27,991 bases of DNA from UHGV virus genome UHGV-0114978; one strand, 5' to 3'. Positions 3,211 through 27,252 of the stretch are shown piece by piece. The notes beneath the pieces are model-generated. The model made no database searches. It saw only the letters and a list, made by a program, of their open reading frames with translations, and was not told the origin of the DNA. The stretch is from a virus. How positions within the stretch are numbered: the first letter of the stretch is position 1; every line of letters begins with the position of its first letter. Both the position numbers and the translations under genes were made by a program.

Positions 3211-3211
3211 T

Positions 3212-3251: not shown

Positions 3252-3351
3252 GTCATAAAAACATGTCGCACTCCAGAGAAGCACAAAGCCTTGCAATCCA
3301 GTGCAAAGCTTTGTGTACCTTAGTTTTGTTTCATAGGTAACTCTGTGTTAA

Positions 3352-5913: not shown

Positions 5914-5935
5914 ATTACCTGAAAAACCACATATG
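5914..5935. promoter_or_regulatory. conserved 22-bp element ATTACC-N5-AACCACATATG, copy A (upstream of tailspike)
   Basis: Same element with identical internal spacing recurs at 24083..24104 upstream of the portal operon; each lies 30-75 bp upstream of a minus-strand late gene start. Confidence 0.4.
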
Positions 5936-5964
5936 GATAGGAAGGCTGTAAATATGAATAGATA

Positions 5965-5979
5965 TTACCTTTCAGGTAA
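5965..5979. promoter_or_regulatory. 15-bp palindrome TTACCTTTCAGGTAA (candidate operator), copy 1
   Basis: Perfect inverted repeat TTACC/GGTAA around a 5-bp centre; identical copy at 24146..24160, variants at 6346..6360 and 7390..7404. Confidence 0.45.
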
Positions 5980-6313: not shown

Positions 6314-6345
6314 GGTTTGTAATTACCAAGTGGAGTGCTTATATT

Positions 6346-6360
6346 TACCTTTGCGGTAAA
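6346..6360. promoter_or_regulatory. palindrome TTACCTTTGCGGTAA (operator variant), copy 2
   Basis: One-base variant of the 15-bp palindrome, nested inside a longer inverted repeat GGAGTGC(6332-6338)/GCACTCC(6369-6375). Confidence 0.4.
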
Positions 6361-6451
6361 TTTACACCGCACTCCTCTTGTGCCATAGTAATCGGGCACT
6401 GGCAAAATCCAGTGCCGGGATTGGCGTCCCGGATTACTAAAAGGCGCATTC

Positions 6452-6471
6452 ACCGCGCAAGCGGTTTTTTT
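6452..6471 (+). terminator. intrinsic terminator ACCGC-GCAA-GCGGT followed by TTTTTTT
   Basis: GC stem with GNRA-type loop and a 7-T run, read from the sequence; sits 140 nt downstream of the 85-aa ORF and 160 nt upstream of ant. Confidence 0.65.
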
Positions 6472-6628
6472 ATGCGTATAGCACGGCCACATTCGTATTA
6501 TGGTGGGCTGTGTGGGGGCACCGAAAGGTGCGCCGGGTCCTTTTAGCCGGTTACGCCAACCCTGCACAGTTCACCACCAACCGATTGGCGTCGGTAGTGG
6601 TGATTAACCAGACTAAAAGGTAACCACT

Positions 6629-7324
6629 ATGACAGCTACAAAAAGCACGTCCATTTTTTCTTTCGAATCTCAAGCCGATATACGGGTAATCGTCATTAAT
6701 GGTGAGCCATGGTTTATCGCTTCAGATGTTTGTCGGGCTATAGGCATAGCAAACCATCGAGATGCTGTTCGAAAACTTGATGATGATGAGAAGGGCGTCG
6801 CTTCAACCGACACCCCTGGCGGTGAGCAAGAATCGATCATTATCTCCGAGTCAGGCCTCTACACACTGATCCTCCGCTGCCGCGATGCGGTGACACCAGG
6901 CACTATCCCATACCGCTTTCGTAAATGGGTTACAGGTGAGGTTCTTCCTCAGATCCGCCGCACCGGAAGTTACATTAAAAACTCGCTCCCGCAGGAAGAA
7001 CGCATAAAGATGGTTGCCGACCAGGTAGCCAACGCCACGGCGTCAGCAGTAATGCAGGCGATGAAGATAGAGAACAAAACCTACAGTGCCCCGCTGAAGC
7101 CCGGCTACCGCAGCCTGATTCATTCGCCGTCGGGTGTTCTCGGCCTGACGGAGAACTCACTGCTGATGAATCTGCTGAACCAGTTACAGGACGACGGGCA
7201 CGACGTATCGGGCGCGGCGGCGGAACTGACCACCATGTTCTGCTACATCGTCGGTGTGAGCAAATGCCTGCGTGATATCCAGACGCACGCGGAATACATC
7301 AACGACAAGGCAGGGTTCTTCTGA
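6629..7324 (+). CDS. antirepressor with N-terminal BRO-N (Bro/KilA-N type) domain
   Basis: N-terminal region FSFESQADIRVIVINGEPWFIASDVCRAIGIANHRDAVRKLDDDEK...SGLYTLILRC...FRKWVTGEVLPQIRRTGSY matches the BRO-N/phage antirepressor signature; 231 aa. Confidence 0.85.
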   Translation: MTATKSTSIFSFESQADIRVIVINGEPWFIASDVCRAIGIANHRDAVRKLDDDEKGVASTDTPGGEQESIIISESGLYTLILRCRDAVTPGTIPYRFRKWVTGEVLPQIRRTGSYIKNSLPQEERIKMVADQVANATASAVMQAMKIENKTYSAPLKPGYRSLIHSPSGVLGLTENSLLMNLLNQLQDDGHDVSGAAAELTTMFCYIVGVSKCLRDIQTHAEYINDKAGFF

Positions 7325-9084: not shown

Positions 9085-12000
9085 CTATTTCATCTGCTCT
9101 TCAACTTTATTTAGTAATGGTGATATCGCCCACAGATTCTGAAAAGGTAGCATTTTACGGACAGCGTGGGTTTGCTGGCTGTCAAATTCTCCGTTAAGTA
9201 CACCATTTGCAACCGTCGCGGCATCACCGCCAAGATCAAAGGTAGGACCAAGTAAAGCACCAATAGCATTACGACTCTGAAACCTTGATACCGGAGGCGC
9301 ACCAAACATCGCGCCAAGACCAAACCTACCGCCGCTTATGTTCTCAACGGTATTCAGCGGCTCAGAGAGCCAGCCAAGCATTCCGCCCCGGTCGATCCCC
9401 TCTTTCACAAGGTTATTCCAGCTGTAGTCGATATCGCGACCGCTTAACTTCTGTTTCATCATATAGACCATTGAGCCAAGCGCAATCGTGCCAAGCGCAC
9501 CAAGATAGAATGCAGCATCGCCCTGCTGGATACCAGATACCAGCACCCTGTTATGCTGTGCGAAGATAAACGTTTTGAACTGCGTGATCATCTTCCAGCC
9601 TTCTTTACTAAAAAACAGCGGTGTATCACCTACGCCAGGCGTTACAATCACTGAGTCTACATCTTTCAGCACTGCAGACTGGAAAATCTCTCTAGCGAAA
9701 CGGTCATCCCACAGATGACTATGCCCGGTTAACAGCCCGTCCATATCCTCTCCGTGCTTCCCGAATTGCTCCCCGATTCGGCGCAGAACATCTTCATTGA
9801 TGCCGACCTGTGCCATCTTCCGCATTTCACTTTTGGAGAGCGTGCCACCAGCAGAAACTTGGCGAGCCGCGTCAAGTATCCTCGACTGCACTATCATCCC
9901 AGACCATGATTTAAGTGCGCTGTTCCACTGATTCATCAGCGTCCAGTTACCGAATTTCTGCGTCATCCAGTTCAGACCTCGCTCAGCGGCGCTTCTCCGG
10001 CTATAGGGGTCAGTAAGATCCGCTATAGCCTTTGTACGCGTAGACAGGACATAATCAAGCCCAACTGCCATTTCTCGCAAATCCCTGGTTGCAATTTTTA
10101 CTGAGTCCATATTTTTAAGCATGCTTACCATTGGTCCGAGAGATTTTCTCAGGCCATGCTGCATCATCGGTCGCATCAGATCAGTTGCAGCGGAGACAGT
10201 CATTCCACCAAGCAAACGGAGGAAGTTAATATTCCTAGCAACTCGCCCGGCACGAACAAAGAAACTGCGTGGATCTTGAGGTGCACCGTAAGTACCAAGC
10301 AGTCGATCACGCATAGCCGTAATATCCCTAATATCAGCCTCCCGTTGCTTCTCAAGAACTGCACGTCGTTTAGGTGTTTTAGCCTCTTTTATTAGCCGGG
10401 TATATTCCTCACTAACCTGACGGATTTGCTCCCCCATATCTTTACGGCCAAACTGCGCAGTCAGCTCAATTTCTGGTGCCACCTGCCGGAGATAACTTTC
10501 CATGATGTAGTTAACATCTGATTCAAGAAAATCTTCTATACGCTCATCAGGAATAAGCAGCGTTCTGCTTTTAGTGAAACCAGCCCGACCAACGAGTCTC
10601 TCTGGGATAATATCGGCTGGTACAAGCCCGGAAGGTGCGCCTATTATTTTATTCACGATCTCGTCAGCAGCGTCCTCTGCTTCCTCTCGGGATAGAGGCT
10701 CCATCTGCTTCAGTGCTCGCTCGCGGCTTGCATTCAGCCTTGTGGTTGAATTTGCCCGTTTTTGCAGTCGGCGAAGCTCAGAACGATATTTCCGTGGATT
10801 ATCCAGCAACTCCATATGGCGCTGATAGACAGGAAGCTCACTCTTTGCCTGCGCTATATCATCAAGGAGTGTTTTAAGGTCAGAGCTTTCTTTCATCATT
10901 CTTGCCTGAAGTTTTTCTGATGAAGTCTCGGCCAACTCTTTTTCTATTCTTGTAAGACGCGCCTGTGTGTCAGTCTCCTGAGATATAAGCTTATTTCGTT
11001 TATCCAGTTCTTCCATGAGTAGAATTTTTTTACCAGACCATTTCTCCGCTTCAGCGATTTCACTAGCGAGAGCATCAGCGCGCGGTGCTGATTCCTCTGC
11101 AGTTTTTAGCAATGAATTTATCTTTTCAATTCGCTGACCTGCTTTGTCAGCACCTTTGGCACTAATCCCTTGTATCCAGTTGGCAATTCGCCCTCTGAAT
11201 TCAGTGCGGTCGGAAAGTATCTTATCGAACTTATAAATGCGGGGAAGATAACTCTTCGCCGTCACGACATCGATATCCTCAGGAAGGATCCCCAATTCCT
11301 GCATACGGGCTTTTGTGGTCTCAAAAATGGGGCGGATTCTGGCGGCTGCTTGTGAAACCTCAGGAATATCACTCTGATCACCACGGCGCATAGCCATGCC
11401 AACAGCTTCATTGAAATCAATAAAGTTCATCCTCTTCACGCCGCGGGCGCTGACAGATTTGCTGTACTGCTGGTAAGCATCACGAGTAGCTTCCATCTGC
11501 TTATAAAGCATGGCGTCGTATTGCTTAATCTTAGTCTCGACTGCCGTAAACGTAGCCAACCCCTCATCATTTTTGGCGAAGAAATAGTTATTTTCGGCAA
11601 GCTGCTGGTTAATCTGACGGGAGACAAGAGATGGTGATTGCGCCAAGCGGCCAGCAGGAGTGACACTCAACGTTTTGTTAGCAAGTCCAAGTCCAGCGAG
11701 CTGTTCCTGATCGAGTGTGGTATTGAAAACCTGAGCTGCACCAATGCTTTGAGGAGAATCCATACCTCGCAAATGATTACCTACTGAGTTAACCACTGCC
11801 TCGCGCGCGCTAGGTCCAGCAAGTAGCTGTGCACCAGCACCAAGGATCCCACCAACGAGAGCATCAACAACAACGTTCGATACGCTCTCCATCGGTGAGC
11901 GAGCTTCCTGAGTGGCCTGTAATGCGGCTTCTGATACTCCCCCACCAGCAGCATTCGCCAGGGCAAAACGCCCTGCCGTCTCAGCAATACTTCCTCCACG

Positions 12001-12474
12001 CGCTACCGCCCCTACAGGGATGAACATTGCAGCCACATTAACCGGGTCTATCATTCCCATTGCTAAGCTTGAAATAGTACCAGCACCACCCATTTCAGAT
12101 AGATATTCTCTATCTGTTCTTTGCTTATCGATTCGATGTTTAATTGCCATTGTTTCTTCATGCGAACCGGAGTTGATAAACGAATCTGCAAAATCTTCAT
12201 AGCCTTTAATATCTGCTGCATCGTTATCAAATGGGTTATATCCTTCAACCCTGTCAAACTGACTGAAAGGAGCACTGGCAATAAAGCTACCCAGCGTGTT
12301 ATCTATACGAAATGCTGCTTGTCTAGACCTTTGAACGCGTTGCTCACTGGTAAATGGGTTCACAGCAGAAAGCAAAGAAGGTGTTTCCATATAGAAATTA
12401 CTGTCATCAGGTGCTGCTATTTGCTGAATATCCTCGCCAAGCAACTCTTTAGGATCCTGTTCATATATCGGCAT
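9085..12474 (-). CDS. internal virion (core/ejection) protein, gp16-like by size and position (1129 aa)
   Basis: Last large gene of the core operon, start coupled to the upstream stop; Gly/Ala-rich putative membrane-interacting region (MGMIDPVNVAAMFIPVGAVARGG...) and long central coiled-coil; order matches T7 gp14-gp15-gp16. Confidence 0.65.
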   Translation of the reverse strand: MPIYEQDPKELLGEDIQQIAAPDDSNFYMETPSLLSAVNPFTSEQRVQRSRQAAFRIDNTLGSFIASAPFSQFDRVEGYNPFDNDAADIKGYEDFADSFINSGSHEETMAIKHRIDKQRTDREYLSEMGGAGTISSLAMGMIDPVNVAAMFIPVGAVARGGSIAETAGRFALANAAGGGVSEAALQATQEARSPMESVSNVVVDALVGGILGAGAQLLAGPSAREAVVNSVGNHLRGMDSPQSIGAAQVFNTTLDQEQLAGLGLANKTLSVTPAGRLAQSPSLVSRQINQQLAENNYFFAKNDEGLATFTAVETKIKQYDAMLYKQMEATRDAYQQYSKSVSARGVKRMNFIDFNEAVGMAMRRGDQSDIPEVSQAAARIRPIFETTKARMQELGILPEDIDVVTAKSYLPRIYKFDKILSDRTEFRGRIANWIQGISAKGADKAGQRIEKINSLLKTAEESAPRADALASEIAEAEKWSGKKILLMEELDKRNKLISQETDTQARLTRIEKELAETSSEKLQARMMKESSDLKTLLDDIAQAKSELPVYQRHMELLDNPRKYRSELRRLQKRANSTTRLNASRERALKQMEPLSREEAEDAADEIVNKIIGAPSGLVPADIIPERLVGRAGFTKSRTLLIPDERIEDFLESDVNYIMESYLRQVAPEIELTAQFGRKDMGEQIRQVSEEYTRLIKEAKTPKRRAVLEKQREADIRDITAMRDRLLGTYGAPQDPRSFFVRAGRVARNINFLRLLGGMTVSAATDLMRPMMQHGLRKSLGPMVSMLKNMDSVKIATRDLREMAVGLDYVLSTRTKAIADLTDPYSRRSAAERGLNWMTQKFGNWTLMNQWNSALKSWSGMIVQSRILDAARQVSAGGTLSKSEMRKMAQVGINEDVLRRIGEQFGKHGEDMDGLLTGHSHLWDDRFAREIFQSAVLKDVDSVIVTPGVGDTPLFFSKEGWKMITQFKTFIFAQHNRVLVSGIQQGDAAFYLGALGTIALGSMVYMMKQKLSGRDIDYSWNNLVKEGIDRGGMLGWLSEPLNTVENISGGRFGLGAMFGAPPVSRFQSRNAIGALLGPTFDLGGDAATVANGVLNGEFDSQQTHAVRKMLPFQNLWAISPLLNKVEEQMK

Positions 12475-15221
12475 TATTTGCCCCCTGCGTATATATTGCT
12501 CGGAAGGTAATTGGCTGAACCATAACCGAATGGTTTGGTCAGATCTGGAGGAGTATATCCATCTTTATTGCTGAACTGCGGCAGCGGATTGCCTTCTCTC
12601 CGCACTCTAGCCTCATCAACACGCTGTTGCTGGAACTGAATGGTTTGCCTGTACATTGGAGATGTCAGCTGATCCGGCTTGAAACGAACAGGGAGACCAT
12701 TTTCTCCAATATAATTTCTCGGTTCTATCGCTCCGTTTGCGTCAGGCTGTAAAACCATAACAGCATAACTCCTATCCCTTGCCGTAAGGCCATCAGAAAC
12801 AAGTATTAAGTCCGTATCACTGCGAGGACCGCCAAAGGATTTTGATTTAAGCTCGCGTTTTTCCTGCTCCCACTGCCCCTGTATCCAGTTACCAGCACCA
12901 TTATTTACTCCGTACAATGCCTCAGGTGCATACTTCATAACCTCTGCTTTGCCATTAACTGTAGAAACTCCCCAGGTGGTTCTGATCATGGCATTGGTCA
13001 TTTTCTCAGCCTGTTCTGCATCGCCACCTGTCTGTACAAAGTTAGCATCGTAAATTGTCTGGTAATCTCGCTGATAGGCCGCATTTGATTTTCCTGGATC
13101 GGTAATATCCGGAGACCACGAACCAAAGGAAGTCAGACTGCTGGCGTTATTTTGTGCAGCAGTTGCCCTCGCCGCGACATATTTTTTGTCTCGCATGGCA
13201 GTGGAAAGCATCTGTTTCATTCGGTCATCCTGTTGGAACACCTGGCTGTAAGCCATATCAACAGCCTTATCCTCCGGCACGCCAGCGCGGGAATAATCGT
13301 AAACCTTGCCGTAAAATGCCATCGTACTTTTATCAAGTGTTGCCGCTGCCGCCGGATTATTATCGAATAACTGACCGTAGAATTTTGCCATCGGGACAAC
13401 CAGCGCAGGATCTCTTGATGTTGCTCCACTGTTAAGCATTGTTTTAACCTGAGTTGGTATCATGCCGCTTTTAGTTGTGACGGTGACCAGTGTATTGATG
13501 CTCTGCGGATCAGATATGGAAAACGAAGGCGCGATATCCTGCGCGAAATAACGGTCTACCGCTGCCTGATTGTTTTTGTCGTTAGGGTCCAGCGGGAAGT
13601 TATTTTGCATTGAAGACACGAACCTGTTTCTTCCCTGCTGAATCTCCCACTCCCTATCCATCTCTTTAAATTTGGCCTGCATTTTCTCCCAGCGTTGCTG
13701 GTTAGCTGCAAATCCAGGAGCATTTGGATCCTGTGGACGTAAACGTTCAAGAATGTCTTGTCGTCCTTCTGGAGTGAGGTCTTTAGCGGCACCAATGACA
13801 CCTCCATATTGTATCTGCGCCTGCATATCCTTCCACTTCATAGCGCCAATGCGCGGACCATTGGCCCGGATAAAATCGTCCTCAGAAGGTAACTTCTCAG
13901 GTTTCAATCCTTCATCAAGGGCTGAATATGCATCTTTAACTACGGTGCTAAGCTGGTCCGCATACTGCTGGCGGTACTGATTTCTCAGCTCATTAGCCTG
14001 CCTCAATGCCTGTATTTGCATTTGAGGGCTCATAGCGTCAAATGCCGCATTGCCCGTATAACGCTTAGGTGAATCAAGGTTAGTTAGACCAAGGGCTGCC
14101 GAGATACCAGTTTCAAGCTGTTCGGTGCTATAAGGCATACTGCCATTTTCGTGTTTAATAATCCCAGCACATAAAGCAGCTAGTGTCTTTGGGTTAGAGA
14201 TATCAAGCTGATCATTCTCCCCAACACCAAGCTCACTACACAATGCCCTAATATAAGCATCAGTATTATTACCATCACTAGCCGGAGCATAGCGATTAAC
14301 AATCTCGCTAACGGTGTCATAGCCTTGACGCTGGTAAGACAACATATTTTTACCCAACGCGCGGATTCCATGCTCAGGGGTAGCAAACGTTGCAAAACGT
14401 CCATCACTACCTATCTGACCTTCCCACGGGTTAGATTTGCTCGCTTCAATATTACCAGGGTTATTATTACGTAAACCACGAGCATCCAATGAATTACCAT
14501 GTGATATTGCACGACTCACACCATCAAGATCCCCTGGCTCTCCATTAACCTGAAGAAACTCGTTGTATTTTTGAGCGATATTTCCTATCCATGCTTGCTG
14601 CCCCATTTGTTCCTTGAGCTGAGTTTTCTGCTGAACACGCCACTCATCAGGAAGCCCATGCGCATCAGCGTATTGATCAATAGATTCAAATCGCTGCTTG
14701 GCTAAATCGACAAATGCTTGGTTATCGCTATATAGCCCCGCAGACTGAGTGACAGCCAATGCATTTCCTGACAAATACGTTTGATCTTGGAATTGCTGAA
14801 ACTGCCCAACTTCATATCGACGTGCCTGATTGTAATAAGACTGCATAGACTGCTGGAGTTGAAAGGATAATTTATTCCTTTCCTCACTTTCAGGAATTGA
14901 GCCTAATAATGCCTGAGCCCTTTCCTGCATATTTTTCATAACAGCGTCACTCTGACCAAGAGCGTTTTTACCCTGTTTAGAAATCAGCCCATTTTCAGGG
15001 TTGTTAATCTGGTCATCTGCAAATTGGTTAAATTGCAGTAACGCCTCCTGGGCCATAGCAACATTCGCTTTCTGCCTAGCTTCACCATATGCCACCGCAT
15101 ACTGATCTGCGACATTCGCCAGCACCTGACCTGCTTGAGGAACATCGAAGGTCTGAAAACCACCGGTTTGCACACCACGACTTTGCACCTGGCGTCCGGA
15201 TGTAGTAGGAACAACAGGCAT
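12474..15221 (-). CDS. internal virion protein, gp15-like by position (915 aa), with a conserved NNPGN-containing block that may be a cell-wall hydrolase domain
   Basis: Translationally coupled on both sides; block RNNNPGNIEASKSNPWEGQIGSDGRFATFATPEHGIRALGKN looks like a conserved enzymatic or binding domain I cannot name with certainty. Confidence 0.65.
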   Translation of the reverse strand: MPVVPTTSGRQVQSRGVQTGGFQTFDVPQAGQVLANVADQYAVAYGEARQKANVAMAQEALLQFNQFADDQINNPENGLISKQGKNALGQSDAVMKNMQERAQALLGSIPESEERNKLSFQLQQSMQSYYNQARRYEVGQFQQFQDQTYLSGNALAVTQSAGLYSDNQAFVDLAKQRFESIDQYADAHGLPDEWRVQQKTQLKEQMGQQAWIGNIAQKYNEFLQVNGEPGDLDGVSRAISHGNSLDARGLRNNNPGNIEASKSNPWEGQIGSDGRFATFATPEHGIRALGKNMLSYQRQGYDTVSEIVNRYAPASDGNNTDAYIRALCSELGVGENDQLDISNPKTLAALCAGIIKHENGSMPYSTEQLETGISAALGLTNLDSPKRYTGNAAFDAMSPQMQIQALRQANELRNQYRQQYADQLSTVVKDAYSALDEGLKPEKLPSEDDFIRANGPRIGAMKWKDMQAQIQYGGVIGAAKDLTPEGRQDILERLRPQDPNAPGFAANQQRWEKMQAKFKEMDREWEIQQGRNRFVSSMQNNFPLDPNDKNNQAAVDRYFAQDIAPSFSISDPQSINTLVTVTTKSGMIPTQVKTMLNSGATSRDPALVVPMAKFYGQLFDNNPAAAATLDKSTMAFYGKVYDYSRAGVPEDKAVDMAYSQVFQQDDRMKQMLSTAMRDKKYVAARATAAQNNASSLTSFGSWSPDITDPGKSNAAYQRDYQTIYDANFVQTGGDAEQAEKMTNAMIRTTWGVSTVNGKAEVMKYAPEALYGVNNGAGNWIQGQWEQEKRELKSKSFGGPRSDTDLILVSDGLTARDRSYAVMVLQPDANGAIEPRNYIGENGLPVRFKPDQLTSPMYRQTIQFQQQRVDEARVRREGNPLPQFSNKDGYTPPDLTKPFGYGSANYLPSNIYAGGK

Positions 15222-19709: not shown

Positions 19710-20111
19710 TTACACGCCCAGTTCTTTACGCTTACCCGCAGTGAATTCGCCAGCCGTTAGTGGGCCAGTTGCGACGGAGTAGTTAACACGCAGATATCGC
19801 TGAACACCGGCAGGCACCTTTGCAGAAACAACTCGTTTACCTGCTGTCAGGGCGGTCTTTGCCAGTGCACCACTATCATAAATAGTGGTCCATGAGCTGT
19901 TATTCTCACTCGTCTGCAACTGGATGTTTACAGTTGCCTCACCACTTGCCGTGGCGGCTTCGTTAACCAGCACCCAAAACTCAAGCGGGTAACCCACGCC
20001 GATATCACGACGTTTTCCGTCAATTGGACCGAGATCGATTACGTCAGTAGAAGCCGCGGTATTCGTAACCGCCTGAGCTTCGGAGAACATCAACAGTTTG
20101 TCGGTGATCAT
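19710..20111 (-). CDS. small structural protein (133 aa) immediately downstream of the major capsid gene
   Basis: Beta-rich composition (alternating T/V/S); location typical for a decoration or cement protein. Confidence 0.45.
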   Translation of the reverse strand: MITDKLLMFSEAQAVTNTAASTDVIDLGPIDGKRRDIGVGYPLEFWVLVNEAATASGEATVNIQLQTSENNSSWTTIYDSGALAKTALTAGKRVVSAKVPAGVQRYLRVNYSVATGPLTAGEFTAGKRKELGV

Positions 20112-20162
20112 CTTCTTTCTCCATTAGTGGGTCTGTTACGACCCACAGGTTAATAACAGGCG

Positions 20163-21155
20163 TTACACCACGCGGGCTTCTGTTTCCAGAAGCGCATCAG
20201 TTTCACGGATTGGTACACCACGGAATGAAGTCCACCACTCGCCTTCAGTCTCTTTTACGCTGATAGCCAGAGATGTTTTCTCCAGAGACTGCAGATCAAG
20301 AGCCTGGCCTACAGTGCGGTTCATGTAGAACACCGGGCGGCCCATGCCACGGTTTGGAATGCGATGTAGTGCTTTAACCATCAACTTCGCAATATTTGCG
20401 GCAGAGGAAGGTTCTGAAAGATTGCTGACATCGATATTTGCAATGCGAACAACATAACGCCAGTCACGCAGAGCAAGTCCGTTGTCCCATTTGTAATGGG
20501 TGCGATAGCCTTCGTACTTGCCGCCATTAGCATCTTCCAGTGTCACCTGGCCTTTATCTTCCATCTGGATGCCAGCCTTCTGCCCTTTCGGGAAGATGCC
20601 ATGCACGGTGTTTTCGCCCCACACCACTAACCAGATTGAGGTGTTATCTGTACCCGTGCCACCAGCATCAATGATGTTCTGAGCATTACCCGCAGACAGG
20701 CTGGAATAGCGGGAGGACAGTCCCATAAACTGCTGAGGGTTAACGCTGGAATCACCATAAAACAGCGTCTGCGCCATCTGCTGATTCATCGCTTCAATAA
20801 ATGCGCGGTCTTCAGACAGGCGGAATTCGGCGGTATTGCCGTTCAGATCAGCCAGTGACTTATCGACTTCAGCATAGGTTTCCAGCATGCCCACGGAATC
20901 GGTTACCTGCACTGTGGTTGATTTGCTTGGCTGTACGCCATAGTTCAGCAAACGCCAGGTAGCTGAAGGTAAACCAGAACGAATGGTGGTTCGGTGTCCG
21001 GTAGGAAGGTTCCCTTCGACAAAAGGCATATCCTGAAGGATCGGGTTAGTTTGACCGAGAAGCTCGATAATCTTATCGACTTTCCCGTTTGGATCGACGC
21101 GCTTACCCCAGTCAGCCAGCGTTAGCGCAGTTAAGCCTTTAACAGCCATTGTCAT
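20163..21155 (-). CDS. major capsid protein (330 aa)
   Basis: Follows the scaffold gene in the canonical portal-scaffold-capsid order; size typical for HK97-fold podovirus capsid proteins. Confidence 0.7.
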   Translation of the reverse strand: MTMAVKGLTALTLADWGKRVDPNGKVDKIIELLGQTNPILQDMPFVEGNLPTGHRTTIRSGLPSATWRLLNYGVQPSKSTTVQVTDSVGMLETYAEVDKSLADLNGNTAEFRLSEDRAFIEAMNQQMAQTLFYGDSSVNPQQFMGLSSRYSSLSAGNAQNIIDAGGTGTDNTSIWLVVWGENTVHGIFPKGQKAGIQMEDKGQVTLEDANGGKYEGYRTHYKWDNGLALRDWRYVVRIANIDVSNLSEPSSAANIAKLMVKALHRIPNRGMGRPVFYMNRTVGQALDLQSLEKTSLAISVKETEGEWWTSFRGVPIRETDALLETEARVV

Positions 21156-21163
21156 TTCCTCTC

Positions 21164-21865
21164 TTATTTGCCATAGAGCACTTCGGCCGCACTACGCTGG
21201 CCTTCATTACCACCGGTGACCATGCCATCTTCAGACATCGCCTTTCCGATTTTCACGAACGTTTTGACCAGATCAGGGTGATTACCCAGCCCGGTGGTGT
21301 TCAGATATTCTTTGAGTTCAGGTGTCCCGAACTGGTCAAGCGCACGCTGTGCGGCGCTAAGGTTAGAAATCAACTTGTCGCCACCGATTTCTTTGTCAGC
21401 TTTTACATCCGCAGCCCACTGCTCGGTTGTTTTCTGCCAGGCTTCTGCCTGGCGCTGCTGAACACCTGCCAGAATCTTCGGATAAGCATCAACCAGCTTT
21501 TGCGCTTGCTCGTTGGTCAGGTTAAGTTCTCGCGCCACCGGCTCGAATTCCTTCAACGCTTCTGTATCCAGCTCTACGCCTTCGGCAGCCTGAAACTCGT
21601 ACTTCTCAGGCGCACCCTCTGGTTTATCGCCGTCCTTTTTTTCATCCTGCTTATCGTTTTCAGGCTTTTTGTCATCAGCAGGTTTATCGCCATCAGCAAC
21701 AGGTTGTGGCTTATCACCTTCCTGTTGTGATGGATCACCAACTGGAGCAGGGTTATCACCTGCAGGCGCTGACGGTTCTGACGCAGCCGGAGCTGCTCCA
21801 CCATCGACTGGTTGCTCATTGCAAAGACGGCGATACAGCAAACGCTCAAATAAATTCATGATCAC
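21164..21865 (-). CDS. scaffolding protein (acidic, helical, low-complexity; about 233 aa, true start may lie a few codons in)
   Basis: Pro/Ala/Asp/Lys-rich N-terminal half (PAASEPSAPAGDNPAPVGD...KPADDKKPENDKQDEKKDGDKPE), helical C-terminal half; located between portal and capsid. Confidence 0.7.
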   Translation of the reverse strand: MIMNLFERLLYRRLCNEQPVDGGAAPAASEPSAPAGDNPAPVGDPSQQEGDKPQPVADGDKPADDKKPENDKQDEKKDGDKPEGAPEKYEFQAAEGVELDTEALKEFEPVARELNLTNEQAQKLVDAYPKILAGVQQRQAEAWQKTTEQWAADVKADKEIGGDKLISNLSAAQRALDQFGTPELKEYLNTTGLGNHPDLVKTFVKIGKAMSEDGMVTGGNEGQRSAAEVLYGK

Positions 21866-22158
21866 TCCTGTTCACTGGCCTCTTTGGCCATCTTCAAATA
21901 CTGTTCAGGGCAATGCGCCATAACGCGCTGAAACAGTTCCAGCGCCAGATTGCGTTGCCCCTCATTAAATGCCATTGCCATAGCGTCCATCGGTGAGATG
22001 GCGGAAAACACACGGCCTTTCTCCAGCACCGACCAGACAACGCGACGCCCCTGTTCACTGCTCATGACAAAGCGAATGTCATCAATTTCACGCTGCGCCA
22101 TGTCACGTTGCTTACGGGCGTTTTCTTCTTTCAGTTGATCGTCTTCGTAATCTGTCAT
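21862..22158 (-). CDS. hypothetical head-assembly-associated protein (98 aa)
   Basis: Coupled to portal (upstream) and scaffold (downstream) by 4-nt overlaps; charged, helical. Confidence 0.45.
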   Translation of the reverse strand: MTDYEDDQLKEENARKQRDMAQREIDDIRFVMSSEQGRRVVWSVLEKGRVFSAISPMDAMAMAFNEGQRNLALELFQRVMAHCPEQYLKMAKEASEQE

Positions 22159-23834
22159 TGTGATTGCCCACCCTGACCACTAACTGCATTCGCCATAGCT
22201 GACAACACACTCGGATCCGAAGTTTTAGCTTCGCTTAGCGTCTTGGCCCCCTGTGCCGCCGCCATCCCCATCGCCATCATTTGTTGCTGCTGTTGTTGCT
22301 GTGCCCGTTGCTGGCGAGCCTGCTCAACCTGTTCCTGCGGAACAATGACGGTTGGAGACACTCCGGACATATCAGCGAATGCATCGATCGCCTGATCAAC
22401 GTTGAGTTTGTCGAGAGCTTCTGGTTTCGCTTGCGCAAGTTGACCAATGAAGTTAACCGTGGACGCCAGACTGGACAGGCCGATAGACTTCTGCGCCTGA
22501 GCCATGACGGAAATGTATTCGACCTTCAGGGGCATGCCTTCCATCGCGTCAGGCGGTGGCGGCAGCATGTTTTTACGCACCATCATCGAGAAAGCGCGGT
22601 CAATGAGAGGATTAAGACATTCGTCGTTCAGACGCTCCAGAACCGGCCCCAACATCAGAAGCTTTTCTTCTTTCATTTCGATCACCGCTTCAACAGGCAT
22701 TGAGCGGGTATTGATGTTCTGCAACATCATGAACAGATCGACGAAGTAGGCGCTGTTAATGATTTGACGAGTGTCCTGAATGTCTGCCACCAAATCTGCT
22801 GTACTGGGGTTAACCAGATAAGCAGGCCTGAAGCCATCCTGACCAGTAATCTGATCGATATACGTGATGTCGCCAGGAAGAAGGGAGGCACGCTGATTCT
22901 TGAGGGAAGTCGGAGCAACCATCGGCGGATTGGTGGCTTTATCAATCAACTGCGACTTGCGCTTCTGGAGACGCTGCAATGCCTTAACAGGTCCAAGCGC
23001 CAGCATACCCGGGCATGATGATCCATAAACATCTTCGCCATTAACTTCCCAGCGCGGAGCCATAATTGGAAACTCATCGAATCCGGACTCACGCAACAAC
23101 TTGTCGTTATCGCCACCAACCTCGTAATAAACCGATTTGAATGGCTTGTTCTTGCTATCCAGCTTCGATGTATCGCGGTCAATGTTCGGGTAAACCGAAT
23201 GCATCACTTCGATCCACTTCTCGTAGGTGCCGCTTTCCCACATGCTTTTTACGGATTCGCTGACGTTATTTAGCCCGAACTCCTGAACAAGCTGACGAAC
23301 AGTCATAGAGAACTTGCGAAAACAGGTGTCAACACTGCCACGAGGTGAGTTAGCCAGGTAGTAACTGCCTATCGGGAATGGCATTGTGCGAATGATGTCC
23401 TCGTCATCCTCCAGCACTGCCATTGCACCAGTGCTGTATGTGCCGAGGCTTCCGTATAACTGCGGCAGCGACTGATAGAGATTCGACTTATTGAACATAT
23501 CGTTCATGCGGTTCTGCACCGCCTCAAGCCACAACTTAACAGGGCCATAATCCATCATTTCAGGATCTGGCGTAGCCAGGCGAAACCACGGACGCGCGGG
23601 GCTTGTGATGCCTGACATCATGCCGCTGGCGAGAGTGCGCGCCGCCATAGTCCCGGTCGAATCAATAATACGTGTATTGCGTCGATCGTTACGGTTGACC
23701 TCAGAAGTCAGAAAGCGGGAACCACGCGGGTTGATGTAATCACTCAACTCGCGCCAGTGCGGCTCGAACGACTGACGCTCGCTTTCAAGTTGTGCGAACT
23801 GTTTGTTCAATCGCTCTTTAGTTGTTTCCGCCAT
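22155..23834 (-). CDS. portal protein (T7 gp8-type head-to-tail connector), 559 aa
   Basis: Size and C-terminal Gln/Met/Ala-rich tail (QQRAQQQQQQQMMAMGMAAAQGAKTL...) resemble T7 gp8 as I recall it; GGAG RBS 9 nt before ATG; follows terL. Confidence 0.88.
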   Translation of the reverse strand: MAETTKERLNKQFAQLESERQSFEPHWRELSDYINPRGSRFLTSEVNRNDRRNTRIIDSTGTMAARTLASGMMSGITSPARPWFRLATPDPEMMDYGPVKLWLEAVQNRMNDMFNKSNLYQSLPQLYGSLGTYSTGAMAVLEDDEDIIRTMPFPIGSYYLANSPRGSVDTCFRKFSMTVRQLVQEFGLNNVSESVKSMWESGTYEKWIEVMHSVYPNIDRDTSKLDSKNKPFKSVYYEVGGDNDKLLRESGFDEFPIMAPRWEVNGEDVYGSSCPGMLALGPVKALQRLQKRKSQLIDKATNPPMVAPTSLKNQRASLLPGDITYIDQITGQDGFRPAYLVNPSTADLVADIQDTRQIINSAYFVDLFMMLQNINTRSMPVEAVIEMKEEKLLMLGPVLERLNDECLNPLIDRAFSMMVRKNMLPPPPDAMEGMPLKVEYISVMAQAQKSIGLSSLASTVNFIGQLAQAKPEALDKLNVDQAIDAFADMSGVSPTVIVPQEQVEQARQQRAQQQQQQQMMAMGMAAAQGAKTLSEAKTSDPSVLSAMANAVSGQGGQSQ

Positions 23835-23848
23835 TTCAATGACTCCGG

Positions 23849-24055
23849 TTACTGACCAAGTAGCGTTTTACCGCTGGTATTAGCGGTTGATGTGTCGCCC
23901 TGAGAACCGGTAAGCAGCGTAGAACTACGACCAGCAGCAGCGCGACGGCGACGTGTTTCTTCGTCGCGGGCATCAACAACGGCGGCATCCTGCTCCTGTG
24001 GTGCTGCCTGAACTTCTGGTGTTGCAGGCACTGATGGTGAGCTACCCATGCACAT
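23849..24055 (-). CDS. candidate small disordered protein (68 aa) upstream of portal
   Basis: Stop TAA lies 14 nt upstream of the portal ATG; preceded by the same 12-nt stretch CGGAGTCATTGA that precedes the portal start. Low-complexity A/T/S/Q-rich sequence, so the coding call is tentative. Confidence 0.35.
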   Translation of the reverse strand: MCMGSSPSVPATPEVQAAPQEQDAAVVDARDEETRRRRAAAGRSSTLLTGSQGDTSTANTSGKTLLGQ

Positions 24056-24082
24056 ATCAATGACTCCGTACGCAATTAAATT

Positions 24083-24104
24083 ATTACCAATTTAACCACA
24101 TATG
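24083..24104. promoter_or_regulatory. conserved 22-bp element ATTACC-N5-AACCACATATG, copy B (upstream of the 68-aa/portal operon)
   Basis: Identical arms and spacing to copy A at 5914..5935. Confidence 0.4.
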
Positions 24105-24145
24105 ATTTATTTATCGTAGATAGTTGACATTTAACGCACAAATTA

Positions 24146-24160
24146 TTACCTTTCAGGTAA
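24146..24160. promoter_or_regulatory. 15-bp palindrome TTACCTTTCAGGTAA (candidate operator), copy 4
   Basis: Identical to copy 1; preceded by a perfect TTGACA hexamer at 24124..24129. Confidence 0.45.
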
Positions 24161-24482
24161 CTAAAGAGTTCATTCCGGTTGCTAACCTGACTGGCTTGTC
24201 GTTAAATTGAACAGGTGTAGTGAGCTTTTGTTTTGAGCAGTACGGCGTATGGCACATGCGCCGATAGCGGTCTGGATACGTTTAAGGGGCACCCTCCCTT
24301 GCTCGGGCAAACGAACCAGGTAGCCGGAATGTGCAAGTCGAGCGGTTTTATTCCGCGCACGGGGATTCACCATCCCGGCGATTCGGTGTGACGCCTCGGA
24401 AGAGACGAGGGTACAACGATGAGAGCATTTATGGAGCCGCGACAAAGTGTGGCGCCTTAACAGGCTAAGTGCTCTCAGCGTT

Positions 24483-24559
24483 GTGGCATTAGCTCAGTTG
24501 GACAGAGCAACCGCCTTCTAAGCGGTTGGTCGCAGGTTCGAATCCTGCATGCCACGCCA
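24483..24559 (+). tRNA. tRNA-Arg, anticodon UCU (reads AGA)
   Basis: Hand-folded cloverleaf: acceptor GTGGCAT/ATGCCAC, U8-A9, D-stem GCTC/GAGC, anticodon stem ACCGC/GCGGT with loop CU-UCU-AA, 5-nt variable loop, T-arm GCAGG-TTCGAAT-CCTGC, discriminator G, encoded CCA. Confidence 0.93.
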
Positions 24560-24602
24560 GAATCACGCCTAAGGACCGTGATGCCAGAAGTTCCAGGTGC
24601 TT

Positions 24603-24645
24603 GGCGGTGATGGTTTCCCTTGAAGGACTATCACCGCCCTTTTTA
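24603..24645 (+). terminator. terminator-like hairpin (9-bp stem GGCGGTGAT/ATCACCGCC, then TTTTT) downstream of the tRNA
   Basis: Seen in sequence; the 18-nt loop is long, so efficiency is uncertain. Confidence 0.5.
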
Positions 24646-24721
24646 CAGCAGGACGCCATTGCGATGACTTCATGCTGTAAACCAGTACAGCCACGGAAGG
24701 CATAACTCATTGCTTCCAGTT

Positions 24722-24745
24722 CGCCCGGTTCGCCGGGCATTTTTT
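24722..24745 (+). terminator. intrinsic terminator GCCCGG-TTCG-CCGGGC followed by A + TTTTTTT
   Basis: Perfect GC stem with UUCG tetraloop and a 7-T run; plus-strand specific. Confidence 0.7.
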
Positions 24746-24875
24746 TAAGGTGTGAATCATGAAATACGAATTCGATGGATTTTGATGTCGTGACATGTCA
24801 CAAACAGCCAGCCGATGAGCTGGATTTGTTTTATCCTCACCAGAGGATATCAGCAGCATTATCCCCTCCAGAGGA

Positions 24876-26351
24876 TTAAGCATAGGGATCGTAATCTGTA
24901 ATGGCCTTGCCTTGCTGGTTCTGCTGACCGGGAATTCGCAGACGCTTCGACACCGGGAAAGCAAACGTCAGCAGTAGCGCATCGCCTTTACCCGGCGAAC
25001 GCCCAAGCCGCTCCTTGATATCTTCCTTCGGTTCGATAACGATTTTACCGTCCACGCGAACTTTGTACTCTGCCGCCGACAGGTCGTCCGCTGTTTCCTG
25101 GTCATCCAGCATGCCGCCCAGCCTCAGCCATGTCTTGCATGCATTGAACATCTCCCCACGCTTGTTAAGCATCTGCGGGTCAGTGGACGCACCGCCGAAC
25201 GGAACAAGTTGCCATGTACGTCCCCAGCCATCACCGATTGACTTCAAACCGGTTCCGTAACCGAAGTCGATGAACACCGCGTCAGCCTGGTACTGGTCTT
25301 CAAAGTCAGCGATACGCTTCGCCATAATCAGATCGTCGGTGGTCTTGTTGCCAGTCCACAACACCTTACTGTGCAGCCCCTGCCGCAGGTATATCACAGC
25401 GTCATCAACGCCGGAGTATGCCGGGTCAACGCCGATTATCACCGGAGCATGTGCCACCTGCGCAGCGGTTACCACCCGTTTCATTGCCTCGTCAGTAAGA
25501 CCGGTAGGGATAAACTGCAATTCAGATGCATCAGGGAATATGCCACGCACACGGATTTTAACGAAGTCGCTGTCTTCCCCGTAGTCATCAACCCATTTCT
25601 GCAACTGATGTTTGTTAGTGCCTTCCACCGTCCGGCTGTCAATCTGCGCAGTTTTCCAGCGATGTTTATATTTGCGGAAACATTCGCGGAAACGTCCGGT
25701 GTTACGTGTAGGGTTTCCGAACGCCACCCAGATAATCTCAGTGTCTTCGTCCGTAAGCGCACCCTCAGCAACTTCCCACACCAGATCCGCAATGTTCGAC
25801 GCTTCATCGAATACCACGATGATGCGTTTGCGCTCGTTGTGTAGTCCGGCGAATGCCTCAGTGTTGTGCTCAGACCAGGGGATTGCGTCAGCTCGCCACC
25901 GCTTGTCGTGCCCAGGGTCATTGCTGTACATCGCGGTAGCGGTACAGGTAAACCAGTCTTTCGTGATAGCAAGGTTCGACCACTTGATAATTTCCGGCCA
26001 GGTCTTCGTTCGTAGCTGGTTGTCGGTGTTGGCGGTCACCACGACCTTACAATCCTCGCAAGTGGACATGCCCCAGTTGATCAACATTGAGATGAATGCT
26101 GATTTACCAATACCGTGGCCCGAAGCACGTGCCAGCATAAGCGGCTGATAGCGCGTCTCTGGATTCTGCAGGTGATCACGTATCTCTCGGAACGCATCAG
26201 CCTGCCACTGACGTGGGCCGGTGGCATGTGCCAGTTCAGTCCCCTCTTCCCCCCAAGGGAACGCATAGAGGACATAGCCAAGCGGATCGTGAGTGAACCC
26301 TGCAATATCCTCGATCAACTGCTCTTCAGGAGATAACGCTGTATCTGTCAC
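24876..26351 (-). CDS. terminase large subunit (491 aa)
   Basis: Walker A-like P-loop ASGHGIGKS near residue 77; acidic nuclease-like C-terminal half; start overlaps the terS stop (ATGA); immediately upstream of portal. Confidence 0.9.
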   Translation of the reverse strand: MTDTALSPEEQLIEDIAGFTHDPLGYVLYAFPWGEEGTELAHATGPRQWQADAFREIRDHLQNPETRYQPLMLARASGHGIGKSAFISMLINWGMSTCEDCKVVVTANTDNQLRTKTWPEIIKWSNLAITKDWFTCTATAMYSNDPGHDKRWRADAIPWSEHNTEAFAGLHNERKRIIVVFDEASNIADLVWEVAEGALTDEDTEIIWVAFGNPTRNTGRFRECFRKYKHRWKTAQIDSRTVEGTNKHQLQKWVDDYGEDSDFVKIRVRGIFPDASELQFIPTGLTDEAMKRVVTAAQVAHAPVIIGVDPAYSGVDDAVIYLRQGLHSKVLWTGNKTTDDLIMAKRIADFEDQYQADAVFIDFGYGTGLKSIGDGWGRTWQLVPFGGASTDPQMLNKRGEMFNACKTWLRLGGMLDDQETADDLSAAEYKVRVDGKIVIEPKEDIKERLGRSPGKGDALLLTFAFPVSKRLRIPGQQNQQGKAITDYDPYA

Positions 26352-26944
26352 TGATTACCATCCTGACGTTCTTTGAGTCGCTTCCTAGCTGCTGCTATGC
26401 GATCAGCAATTGTCACATTCACATTAACATCCAGACGTTCTTTGAACGCGTTGACATCAACATGCTTACCAATCAGCTCAAGGTTCTTCACCTTGTCAGG
26501 CCATTTAATTTTTTTGAGGATTGTCTCTATCGAATCCTCGTTCATGTTCATGATGGTCGATGACAGATCAAAGCCACTAAGCGTAGTGCGCCAGATTTTC
26601 GGCCACTCGCGGATTGGTTTAAGGCTCCCATCGTCGTTGAGGATATCGATCACGTCCATCTGGTCGATCTCCACCAAGCGCATGAGAACGTAATCAGCAC
26701 TGACGCGCATTCGTTTGTTGCGCTCCTCCATCAACTCGGCAATCCGTTTTTGAATGCGTTCATCGCGCATCATGGCACTGGCTTTAACTGCCGCTGTATT
26801 TGGGGAGAATCCTGCGTTAATCGCTGCCTGAGTCTGGTTTTCAGGCGTTTTGATGTATGACTGGCAATAAGCCTCCTGCATTGCTGTGAGCGGCTTAAAT
26901 TGCGTTGATTTGCGTTTATAGGTTTTAGGTTCAGCAGGCATCAT
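26348..26944 (-). CDS. terminase small subunit (about 198 aa; the track ORF extends to 27022 but the N-terminal 26 codons look non-native)
   Basis: From MMPAEPKTYKRK...QEAYCQSYIKTPENQTQAAINAGFS the sequence resembles small-terminase DNA-binding N-domains; GGTGG SD before ATG 26944; coupled to terL. Confidence 0.72.
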   Translation of the reverse strand: MMPAEPKTYKRKSTQFKPLTAMQEAYCQSYIKTPENQTQAAINAGFSPNTAAVKASAMMRDERIQKRIAELMEERNKRMRVSADYVLMRLVEIDQMDVIDILNDDGSLKPIREWPKIWRTTLSGFDLSSTIMNMNEDSIETILKKIKWPDKVKNLELIGKHVDVNAFKERLDVNVNVTIADRIAAARKRLKERQDGNQ

Positions 26945-27018
26945 AACCACCATGGTAATAGTTACCGTCGTGGTAATAGTACCATAAAAAATAAAGCCGC
27001 CATAGTTGGCGGCAGTAT

Positions 27019-27252
27019 TCAAAGTCCATCAAATTCATCGTAAAAACTCTCGTCAAGATACCCTTCCCATTTACCGCGAATGAAAATTACATCCTCGCCG
27101 CAAGGGTGCTGACTGTCGATAACTATATCCCTCCTGGCGCAACCATACTTATGCATGAGAAATTTAACCTCTTTCGGAAAATTTGCTGAGTTATCTCTCA
27201 TATCTTCAAGGTCGTAGCGTATTTTTGGCATAACACCTTCGTGACATGTCAC
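27019..27252 (-). CDS. hypothetical protein (77 aa) upstream of terS
   Basis: ORF coupled to neighbours by 4-nt overlaps; no recognisable motif. Confidence 0.4.
   Translation of the reverse strand: MTCHEGVMPKIRYDLEDMRDNSANFPKEVKFLMHKYGCARRDIVIDSQHPCGEDVIFIRGKWEGYLDESFYDEFDGL

Follow-up and report, generated by a model that had tools for sequence, protein, structure and literature searches.

This report concerns a plus-strand transcription unit in the virus genome UHGV-0114978, which was analysed over a stretch of 27,991 nucleotides (nt), hereafter the window. The unit lies in a gap of 820 bp (24056-24875) between minus-strand genes. On one side is a terL homologue (24876-26351, minus strand, 491 aa; terminase large subunit by the annotation of relatives), and on the other a gp3-like open reading frame (ORF; 23849-24055, minus strand, 68 aa), beyond which lies the portal gene (22155-23834, minus strand; PF12236, E 9.5e-188). 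A preliminary description of this DNA had recognized a canonical tRNA-Arg(UCU) on the plus strand of the gap, between terL and the portal operon, and had guessed that its leader might hold another noncoding RNA (ncRNA). ARAGORN and Rfam agree on the tRNA, which is antisense to terS, terL and the portal gene, and a conserved RNA family does occupy the leader, at 24240-24482. The tRNA alone is routine, and the leader is our main result.

Along its entire length the region shares 98.3% identity with Escherichia phage phiv142-3, and its identity to phiV10, TL-2011b, O157 typing phages 9 and 10 and vB_EcoP_ZX5 is 96-98%. These phages belong to the genus Uetakevirus, the epsilon15 group, and by sequence the window is a phiV10/epsilon15-like (Uetakevirus) phage. 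The gap contains the following features.

24082-24107, no strand assigned: conserved motif ATTACC-N6-AACCACATATGAT in the divergent control region, invariant in six relatives
24124-24152, plus strand: predicted sigma-70 promoter TTGACA-17 nt-TACCTT of the plus-strand unit, from reading of the sequence
24145-24161, no strand assigned: operator-type palindrome ATTACC-N5-GGTAA(C), overlapping the -10 hexamer and the predicted start site
24160-24239, plus strand: variable 5' segment of the transcript, ~80 nt, a long hairpin domain in other Uetakeviruses and partly degenerate in the window
24240-24419, plus strand: conserved pseudoknotted RNA core, from covariance model R1 and covariation
24414-24483, plus strand: closing helix P6 (CAACGAUGAGAGCA / UGCUCUCAGCGUUG) around a variable insert, its last base being nucleotide 1 of the tRNA
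24483-24559, plus strand: tRNA-Arg with anticodon UCU and encoded CCA, from ARAGORN and Rfam
24562-24582, plus strand: 3' trailer hairpin AUCACG-CCUAAGGAC-CGUGAU, nearly invariant across Uetakevirus and Klebsiella relatives
24603-24645, plus strand: intrinsic terminator T1, a 14-bp stem and T-run (terminator scan, 24603-24638)
24646-24722, plus strand: spacer (ATGACTTCATGCTGTAAACC...) that looks like the remnant of the 5' end of a former cargo gene, conserved in phiV10, Klebsiella phages, Tyrion and epsilon15
24723-24746, plus strand: intrinsic terminator T2 (GCCCGGTTCGCCGGGC then T7; terminator scan, 24723-24738)
24760-24786, plus strand: eight-codon remnant ORF at the site of a plus-strand cargo gene in relatives
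24808-24823, called on both strands: bidirectional terminator-like hairpin separating the unit from the terL 3' end

The leader RNA family spans about 240 nt (24240-24482), consisting of a core of ~180 nt and helix P6. In the alignment of Uetakevirus gaps, long invariant blocks are separated by indel-rich segments, and a 19-mer, GGTAGCCGGAATGTGCAAG (24319-24337), is identical in all 18 loci first compared. The full comparison comprised 138 loci with 113 distinct core sequences, from which 44 representatives with less than 90% identity were drawn. Helices were derived by eye and checked with RNAalifold, and the same sequences were later used for the covariation count. The following plus-strand elements were recognized.

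P1, 24243-24247 with 24259-24263: hairpin with loop UAUGGCACAUG
P2/P2a, just 5' of the 19-mer: closes a variable domain, from the alignment
P4, 24362-24365 with 24373-24376: hairpin with loop UUCACCA
Pseudoknot, CACC (24368-24371, in the P4 loop) with GGUG (24385-24388): from the alignment
P5, 24394-24398 with 24406-24410: hairpin with loop GAAGAGA
P6, 24414-24427 with 24470-24483: a helix formed by 24 of 25 distinct variants

Standard pairs occupy 95.8% of the alignment cells for the core helices, compared with 28-40% when the 3' partners are slid by one to three columns. Changes on both sides were found at 16 of the 35 base pairs in the 44 representatives, and 119 cells were changed on both sides as against 32.5 in shuffles (none of 500 shuffles reached the observed value). 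Examples include pair 8-20 (A-U in 24 sequences, G-C in 19), pair 152-160 (A-U 24, U-G 12, C-G 7), pair 34-93 (C-G 35, U-A 9) and the pseudoknot pair 155-175 (C-G 40, A-U 4), while P6 contains compensatory replacements such as GGGUAGCUCAC/GUGAGCUACUC. Two further candidate helices involving the 19-mer, a long-range pseudoknot (GCACAU:AUGUGC) and CGGU:GCCG, are invariant at every pair in the 44 representatives. As G-U pairs are common (for example, 20 of 44 sequences at pair 6-22), the structure was assigned to the plus strand. The covariance model, R1, scored 137.5 bits in the window (E 1.7e-43), 132.6 in mEp460, 127.4 in P1 and 163.8 in locus L097, and it detected a single full-length copy in each of these four.

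The minimum free energy of the leader is only modestly better than that of shuffled sequences (z = -2.07 for the plus strand and -1.19 for the minus strand), and because of this weak thermodynamic support folding energy was not relied on. The leader had been characterized as hairpin-rich, which holds by virtue of covariation and not of energy. Compensatory substitutions across diverged sequences are the generic mark of a structured ncRNA, and their presence here indicates that the leader belongs to a structurally constrained RNA family of the plus strand, a conclusion that we consider to be well supported.

This pattern also bears on whether the conserved block could function as DNA instead, for instance as a site of packaging or recombination or as an origin. 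The only basis for such a function is that the block adjoins the terminase genes, from which a packaging site had been suggested previously. However, lambdoid immunity regions and the ban operon of P1, which are remote from packaging functions, contain the same block, and its orientation with respect to promoters and terminators is constant. Variation keeps base pairs, and many of the G-U pairs would be C-A mismatches on the other strand. This plus-strand RNA pattern of conservation, together with the genomic positions, makes a packaging site or other DNA element very improbable.

No Rfam 15 model overlapped the leader when the window was compared with a cutoff of E <= 1 or, across its whole length, at the gathering score, and eight homologous loci likewise gave none with the cutoff relaxed to E <= 5. 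No annotated RefSeq feature underlay the family among the E. coli matches listed. A literature search on the invariant strings and on put-like or tRNA-like prophage RNAs yielded nothing relevant, with an earlier description elsewhere being possible. The family is nevertheless widespread. Among complete E. coli genomes, 1840 of 5426 carry it, with 1920 places on chromosomes and 554 on plasmids. A BLAST search with 24225-24482 as query matched lambdoid phages (cdtI, mEp460, mEp390, 1720a-02 and Stx2a-, Stx2c- and Stx2k-converting phages), a Lastavirus, a phage deposited under Stenotrophomonas, and P1, P7, D6, SJ46 and RCS47. In IMG/VR, at least 120 loci contain the exact 19-mer, and a scan of one genome per species gave 24 matches, all in genera of the Enterobacteriaceae except for two metagenome bins; the 19-mer is unchanged from E. 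coli to phages of Kosakonia and Klebsiella. The assignment of BUCT708 to Stenotrophomonas looks odd because every other match is enterobacterial. In this phage (locus L017, 2631-2750) there is an RprA-like match just 3' of the core, at a sub-threshold 50.2 bits (gathering score 70; E 0.0016). We conclude that it is well supported that the leader family is widespread, absent from Rfam and uncatalogued.

The genomic contexts of the family are varied. A tRNA-Arg(UCU) gene is located 160-220 nt downstream on the same strand in 32 of the 138 loci, a tRNA-Ile2(CAU) gene is located ~170 nt upstream on the same strand in 17 (the P1 type), and 89 have no tRNA. Many of the tRNA-less loci carry a tRNA-like cloverleaf (GUGGUGA-...-CACCAC) with covarying D-like and T-like hairpins in a four- or five-way junction fold, in the position held elsewhere by the tRNA. 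Altogether, 85 of 131 loci have a tRNA or tRNA-like cloverleaf following the core. This cloverleaf was observed in mEp460 (L011, 3243-3375), L016, L024, L093 and ~50 other loci. Its acceptor-like stem is GUGGUG/CACCAC, the D-like hairpin carries the loop GGCUGA and the T-like one a loop of 9 nt; the central arm in L024 bears a 7-nt anticodon-like loop, UUUUAAU. ARAGORN did not call these cloverleaves as tRNAs. The trailer hairpin is kept in 41 of 131 family loci, a homologue of T1 (TTGGCGGT...ACCGCC-TTTT) follows the RNA in 95 of 131, and by a generic criterion a terminator-like hairpin is present downstream in at least 106 of 129. Most loci have a strong promoter-like site 30-120 nt upstream of the RNA. 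The nearest same-strand upstream ORF encodes a CI-type repressor (Peptidase_S24/helix-turn-helix) in 56 of 101 cases and is P1 tciA (TerB) in 8.

Individual phages illustrate the range of arrangements. The order in mEp460 is the cI stop, a terminator, two TTGC-N7-GCAA operators, the RNA, the tRNA-like domain, T1, T2 and the first early-left gene, which comes directly after T2 with no room for another promoter; the mEp460 record has an annotated Q-like gene and no annotated N-like gene. In P1, the ban operon, which C1 controls, has the core flanked by trnI and ban and lacks P6, T1 and T2. An upstream ORF of 24 codons between the P1 core and ban (L010, 3200-3275) has a stop overlapping the ban start (TAATG), which suggests translational coupling. 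Locus L097 has a bidirectional terminator directly after the core, with plus-strand genes ~1 kb further, and typifies an arrangement shared with L041 and L054 in which the core and an immediate terminator are flanked by opposite-strand genes. In L078 the core is followed by a 64-codon ORF and then by T1. The leader regions of the mEp390 type (L022, L046 and L018), L016 and L045 are mosaics of further conserved RNA-like modules extending up to ~0.8 kb. One of these, 'module X' (CCCAGACGAUAUCUGAGUGG...GGAGCCGGUGGAAUCCCGGC), contains a T-arm-like hairpin and replaces P5/P6 in some loci while following the tRNA-like domain in others.

Expression of the unit in the window can be predicted from its control region. 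A TTGACA hexamer and a palindrome had been noted within 24124-24160, and both were recovered, the -35 hexamer at 24124-24129 and the palindrome TTACCTTTCAGGTAA at 24146-24160. A strict sigma-70 consensus scan called no promoter in the region because the -10 hexamer, TACCTT, matches only three of six consensus positions. The call depends instead on conservation among relatives, since this -35/-10 pair and its 17-nt spacer form the best promoter-like site at over 30 related loci. From the predicted start at ~24160 to 24482 the leader is ~323 nt long, in agreement with the ~320 nt proposed previously. The variable 5' segment of this transcript contains a helix (AAAGCGCRC...GYGCGCTTT) in alignments of Tyrion, Klebsiella phages and epsilon15.

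The operator motif is present in five copies in the window, as compared with 0.76 expected. The homologous operator site of epsilon15 is annotated 'repressor, lysogeny' by the depositors, and in that phage ATTACC-N5-GGTAAT occurs three times beside the repressor gene and also before terS, gp3 and the tailspike gene. The location of the -10 hexamer within a repressor-type operator, the motif repeats and the epsilon15 annotation lead to the prediction that the unit would be silent in a lysogen and de-repressed on induction, and hence would be early and repressor-dependent rather than late. Repressor control is inferred here from the depositors' annotation and the repetition of the motif, and it matches the contexts of lambdoid pL and P1 Pban. 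Late timing would not be expected on this prediction.

Other copies of the control sequences are found elsewhere in the window. The ATTACC-N6-AACCACATATGAT motif is probably part of the minus-strand gp3/portal promoter region, as far as its function can be read from position, and has a second copy at 5914-5937, upstream of the tailspike gene. The two sites (5914-5979 and 24082-24160) share a two-part module consisting of ATTACC-N6-AACCACATATGRAT, ~40 bp and the operator ATTACCTTTCAGGTAA, which suggests common regulation of the minus-strand tailspike and gp3/portal units. A further operator copy (6345-6359) precedes an isrK/C4 RNA pair and a Bro-N antirepressor gene. Rfam places isrK at 6396-6471 (plus strand, 77.9 bits) and the C4 antisense RNA at 6496-6581 (plus strand, 77.7 bits), directly 5' of the Bro-N ORF (6629-7324). 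This block looks like an immI-like c4/ant module of P1, and the same isrK/C4 pair adjoins antirepressor genes in mEp460 and 1720a-02.

The 3' part of the unit contains the two plus-strand terminators that had been reported after the tRNA, which the terminator scan placed at 24603-24638 and 24723-24738; in all, the scan found five terminator-like sites in the region, as against 1.8 expected. Transcriptional interference with terL, another of the earlier proposals, is unlikely, since that gene is shielded from the unit by two to three plus-strand terminators. In relatives, the stretch separating the tRNA from terL holds plus-strand cargo that differs between phages. In phiV10, epsilon15 and a Klebsiella phage, T2 is followed immediately by the cargo gene, the ATG being ~20 nt past T2 in phiV10 and the Klebsiella phage. 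Relative to the window, the phiV10 gap has ~350 bp extra encoding p03 (PF13876), and p03 is the cargo of both phiV10 and epsilon15 (the phiV10 p03 matching Phage_gp49_66). The cargo is a 168-aa protein in SPN9TCW, a 263-aa protein in BUCT711, two genes in BUCT554, and three small genes with an int-alpA RNA in Tyrion. The latter RNA (L008, 4161-4225; Rfam RF02996) scores 44 bits against a gathering score of 35.8 and lies among the plus-strand cargo genes. Identification of the cargo as a Tad2/DUF2829 anti-defence gene was set aside, as p03 of phiV10 matches PF13876 and DUF2829 is the depositor's note for the Klebsiella phage only.

These comparisons indicate that the terL/gp3 gap is a hot spot for plus-strand cargo, and that the cargo gene has been deleted in the window phage and in phiv142-3. 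As only an eight-codon remnant is left after T2, the unit is purely non-coding in this phage. We interpret the locus as a 'moron', a non-coding transcription unit on the plus strand that occupies the terL/gp3 gap of a phiV10/epsilon15-like prophage. It shares with morons its own (predicted) promoter and terminators, insertion on the opposite strand between terL and head genes, and cargo that varies among relatives; it differs in that its content is wholly non-coding (RNA and tRNA) and its promoter bears the phage's own operator.

A contrasting reduction is seen in epsilon15, which lacks the tRNA and most of the core and retains an R1 remnant of 31.7 bits. The breakpoints fall in a 13-nt repeat, TTCCCTTGATGCT, which SPN9TCW has twice, in the leader and in the T1 loop. 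Also lost was the 5' half of T1, while T2 and the cargo ORF remain. On this sequence evidence the epsilon15 locus (L003/L165, ~2640-2720 in the record) is a deletion derivative that arose by recombination between copies of TTCCCTTGATGCT.

The tRNA-Arg(tct) gene at 24483-24559 (plus strand) is the sole tRNA that ARAGORN detected in the window, and the Rfam scan found it on the same strand over the full model length (RF00005, 73.3 bits, gathering score 29). The gene is 77 nt long with an encoded 3' CCA, and reading of the sequence places A20 in the D-loop AGUUGGACA, U34-C35-U36 in the anticodon and G at position 73. In E. coli tRNA-Arg, the identity elements for arginyl-tRNA synthetase are A20, C35, U36 and a purine at 73, plus the 3' CCA, and the predicted tRNA carries these arginine identity elements together with the UCU anticodon. 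The same tRNA was recovered by ARAGORN in phiV10, TL-2011b, SPN9TCW and two Klebsiella phages, and comparison with related phages locates it in the same gap of phiV10, phiv142-3, TL-2011b and the O157 typing phages. It is annotated in the records of phiv142-3, O157 typing phages 9 and 10, SPN9TCW, SPC32H and a Klebsiella phage, and the paper on vB_EcoP_ZX5 reports one tRNA (PMC9782041). Thus, the tRNA is not new, and the window gene matches the tRNA-Arg(UCU) of phiV10/SPN1S-type Uetakeviruses in gene, position and orientation, with no difference in the tRNA itself.

Several database records require correction at this locus. The phiv142-3 record (L001, 3190-3258) puts the tRNA on the wrong strand, and those of phiV10 (L002, PhiV10p04) and TL-2011b (L009) call an antisense 83-aa 'hypothetical protein' over it (both 3190-3441). 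ORFs annotated across the leader RNA in mEp460 (gp37), Stx2k, BUCT554 and mEp390 are probably spurious. A protein-coding reading of the minus-strand ORFs in the window that overlap the RNA and the tRNA (24182-24445 and 24489-24740) was rejected on account of non-triplet indels among relatives and block-wise conservation without codon periodicity.

Codon supplementation is the usual explanation for phage tRNAs, and the preliminary description had supposed that a tRNA for AGA could boost late translation. Counts over the non-overlapping ORFs of the window gave 8.4 AGA and 7.1 AGG per 1000 codons. The averages for E. coli are ~2 for AGA and 1-2 for AGG, so that AGA is enriched about fourfold. The tailspike gene has 15 AGA codons, the integrase gene 11, and the genes of the two largest internal/tail proteins 12 and 7. 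AGA is wholly missing from 19710-26351 (major capsid, protease/scaffold, portal and terL) and from terS (26348-27022). As a comparison of single genomes, tRNA-bearing phiv142-3 uses 8.1 AGA per 1000 codons and tRNA-less epsilon15 uses 4.4. These values are consistent with codon supplementation by the predicted tRNA. The supposed boost to late translation fits only in part, AGA being frequent in the tailspike and internal-protein genes and absent from those of the head. AGA, AGG and ATA are together concentrated in the tailspike, integrase and large internal-protein genes (3731-5860, 1905-2975 and 9085-15221) and absent from the head genes, consistent with a different, lower-GC origin of these segments.

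One explanation of the whole unit, following the preliminary description, is that the leader is a mere precursor sequence and the unit only supplies tRNA-Arg(UCU) for late virion genes or interferes with terL. The AGA enrichment, the approximately twofold difference between phiv142-3 and epsilon15, and the convergence of the unit with terL speak for this explanation. It does not account for the compensatory base-pair changes in the leader or for the occurrence of the family without any tRNA at 89 loci, in unrelated genome positions. In addition, the head genes lack AGA, terL is insulated by terminators, and the operator predicts early and not late expression. This explanation is already contradicted as regards the leader, and overall we regard it as unlikely.

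The mechanism that we favour would operate as follows. Transcription from the TTGACA-17-TACCTT promoter would be silent in the lysogen and switched on by de-repression. The resulting transcript would comprise in order the ~80-nt variable segment, the ~240-nt pseudoknotted RNA, the tRNA-Arg(UCU), the trailer hairpin, T1 and T2. An RNase P cut at G24483 would part the leader from the tRNA, which may then add AGA-decoding capacity for the tailspike, integrase and internal-protein genes. As the leader of an early operon, and not a mere spacer, the RNA would act in cis on the transcribing complex or the nascent transcript, and would let a controlled fraction of transcription pass the following terminators, an effect resembling that of N/nut or of HK022 put with an unrelated origin. 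Our preference for such a cis-acting element controlling terminator read-through is a tentative one, and we hold it at somewhat less than even chances.

Several aspects of gene arrangement argue for this mechanism. The RNA is promoter-proximal in early operons, in the position of pL/nutL/putL. It is followed by terminators and then by promoterless genes in mEp460, and by a cargo ATG ~20 nt past T2 in phiV10 and the Klebsiella phage, while in P1 and L078 the core is directly upstream of a coding gene. The systems most similar in layout are putL/putR of HK022 and N/nutL of lambda, which likewise open a repressor-controlled early operon and are followed by intrinsic terminators and then by early genes that lack promoters. 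The put RNAs are cis-acting, factor-independent antiterminators of ~70 nt with two stem-loops and are present twice per genome, whereas the leader core is ~180 nt with pseudoknots and is present once per genome. R1 had no match at E <= 1, with filters off, in HK022 24000-30000, a stretch chosen so as to include pL, putL and nun, which carry no annotation in the record. The covariance model, also with filters off, detected no second put-like copy in the window or in mEp460. The boxA (CGCUCUUA / UGCUCUUUAACAA) and boxB hairpin of lambda nut, which work with an arginine-rich N protein, are not present as a pair in the leader RNA. A boxA/nut reading of the family was rejected, as a strong boxA string occurs in 3 of 138 loci, at about background frequency, and forms part of terminator tails there.

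A number of observations weigh against the proposed mechanism. There is one copy of the RNA per genome, whereas HK022 has both putL and putR. The P1 copy has no terminator after it, and the window phage and phiv142-3 retain the unit without any cargo gene. Conversely, epsilon15 keeps T2 and an intact cargo ORF despite having lost most of the core, which weighs mildly against an obligatory role in antitermination. The RNA and T1 move as a cassette between unrelated phage types, which fits a self-contained ncRNA gene better. With respect to structure, the 19-mer pseudoknot is invariant and so without compensatory changes; scans of IMG/VR with forced mismatches in the 19-mer helices returned rare C-to-U variants, which are compatible with G-U pairing, and G-to-A variants, which create a C-A mismatch, only in degenerate-looking copies. 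The promoter, start site and RNase P cut are themselves predictions. Finally, the AGA argument draws on a single-genome comparison, and the head genes with the highest expression do not require a tRNA for AGA.

Some of these observations would be explained if the ~240-nt leader were a self-contained ncRNA gene, whose product is given its 3' end by RNase P, is stable and acts in trans on a conserved host component. Candidate targets include RNA polymerase, the ribosome, an RNase or a tRNA-targeting defence, and the terminators would merely end the gene, with downstream genes being expressed by leak-through. Such a role could account for the extreme conservation whatever the neighbouring proteins, with the 19-mer invariant from E. 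coli to Kosakonia and Klebsiella phages, and for the way in which the RNA, the tRNA or tRNA-like module (85 of 131 loci), the trailer hairpin and T1 travel as one cassette. The stand-alone arrangement of L097, L041 and L054, the retention of the unit without cargo in the window and of the cargo without the core in epsilon15 fit equally, and DicF, P1 C4, P4 CI, GOLLD and ROOL provide precedents. This possibility is less readily reconciled with P1 and L078, in which the core stands directly before a coding gene with no following terminator or RNase P signal, or with the lambdoid early-left genes, which have no visible promoter of their own behind T1/T2. We consider a processed trans-acting RNA to be only slightly less likely than the cis-acting leader.

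Comparison with these precedents reveals both similarities and differences. GOLLD and ROOL are also phage-borne, highly structured and often situated beside same-strand tRNAs. They are ~600-800 nt long, in contrast to the ~180-nt leader core, which has no Rfam match to either, is confined to phages of Enterobacteriaceae and occurs at the heads of repressor-controlled operons. DicF (of the dicBF operon of Qin), C4 of P1/P7 and CI of P4 are, like the leader, ncRNAs within repressor-controlled early transcripts of prophages, and are processed from them; C4 and CI are matured by RNase P, and DicF is processed from the early-left operon of its prophage. They are short RNAs of antisense or Hfq type for which targets are known and Rfam models exist, whereas the leader has no match among them and resembles a compact tertiary fold more than a base-pairing sRNA.

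Another way to combine a constant core with changing neighbours is a riboswitch-like sensor of a small molecule, an ion or a tRNA, which would gate the early operon through varied expression platforms (a terminator, a ribosome-binding site or helix P6). The compact core with invariant junction nucleotides and a covarying pseudoknot, its 5'-proximal position and the variety of what follows it are in keeping with a sensor: L097 has a terminator immediately after the core, L078 a ribosome-binding site and ATG, P1 the upstream ORF and ban, and the window P6 with the tRNA. However, no alternative pairing was seen between the core and the downstream terminator or ribosome-binding site, T1 is 100-200 nt away and beyond a tRNA, the downstream genes share no common function and no known riboswitch model in Rfam matches. 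A sensor of this type is therefore improbable.

Here we have described an RNA that is common in E. coli, being carried by about one-third of complete genomes, by P1-type plasmids and by Stx2- and Stx2c-converting phages. It is situated exactly where lambda has N/nut and HK022 has put. The lambdoid carriers have no visible means of expressing their early-left genes behind strong terminators, for which the leader RNA is the obvious candidate. Whether it acts in cis or in trans, this is a new structured RNA family in well-studied model phages, P1 included, and its recognition corrects the annotation of several GenBank records in which ORFs across the leader RNA and the tRNA are probably spurious. 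We raise the possibility, with considerable reservation, that the leader represents a new class of phage regulatory RNA, in which a compact pseudoknot heads the repressor-controlled early operons of lambdoid, P1-like and Uetakevirus phages and governs read-through of the terminators behind it. It might do so as an antiterminator that needs no protein and has no relationship to put, or alternatively as a switch sensing a ligand or a tRNA. A class of this kind, if real, would add a previously unseen layer to the lysis-lysogeny programme in about one-third of E. coli genomes.

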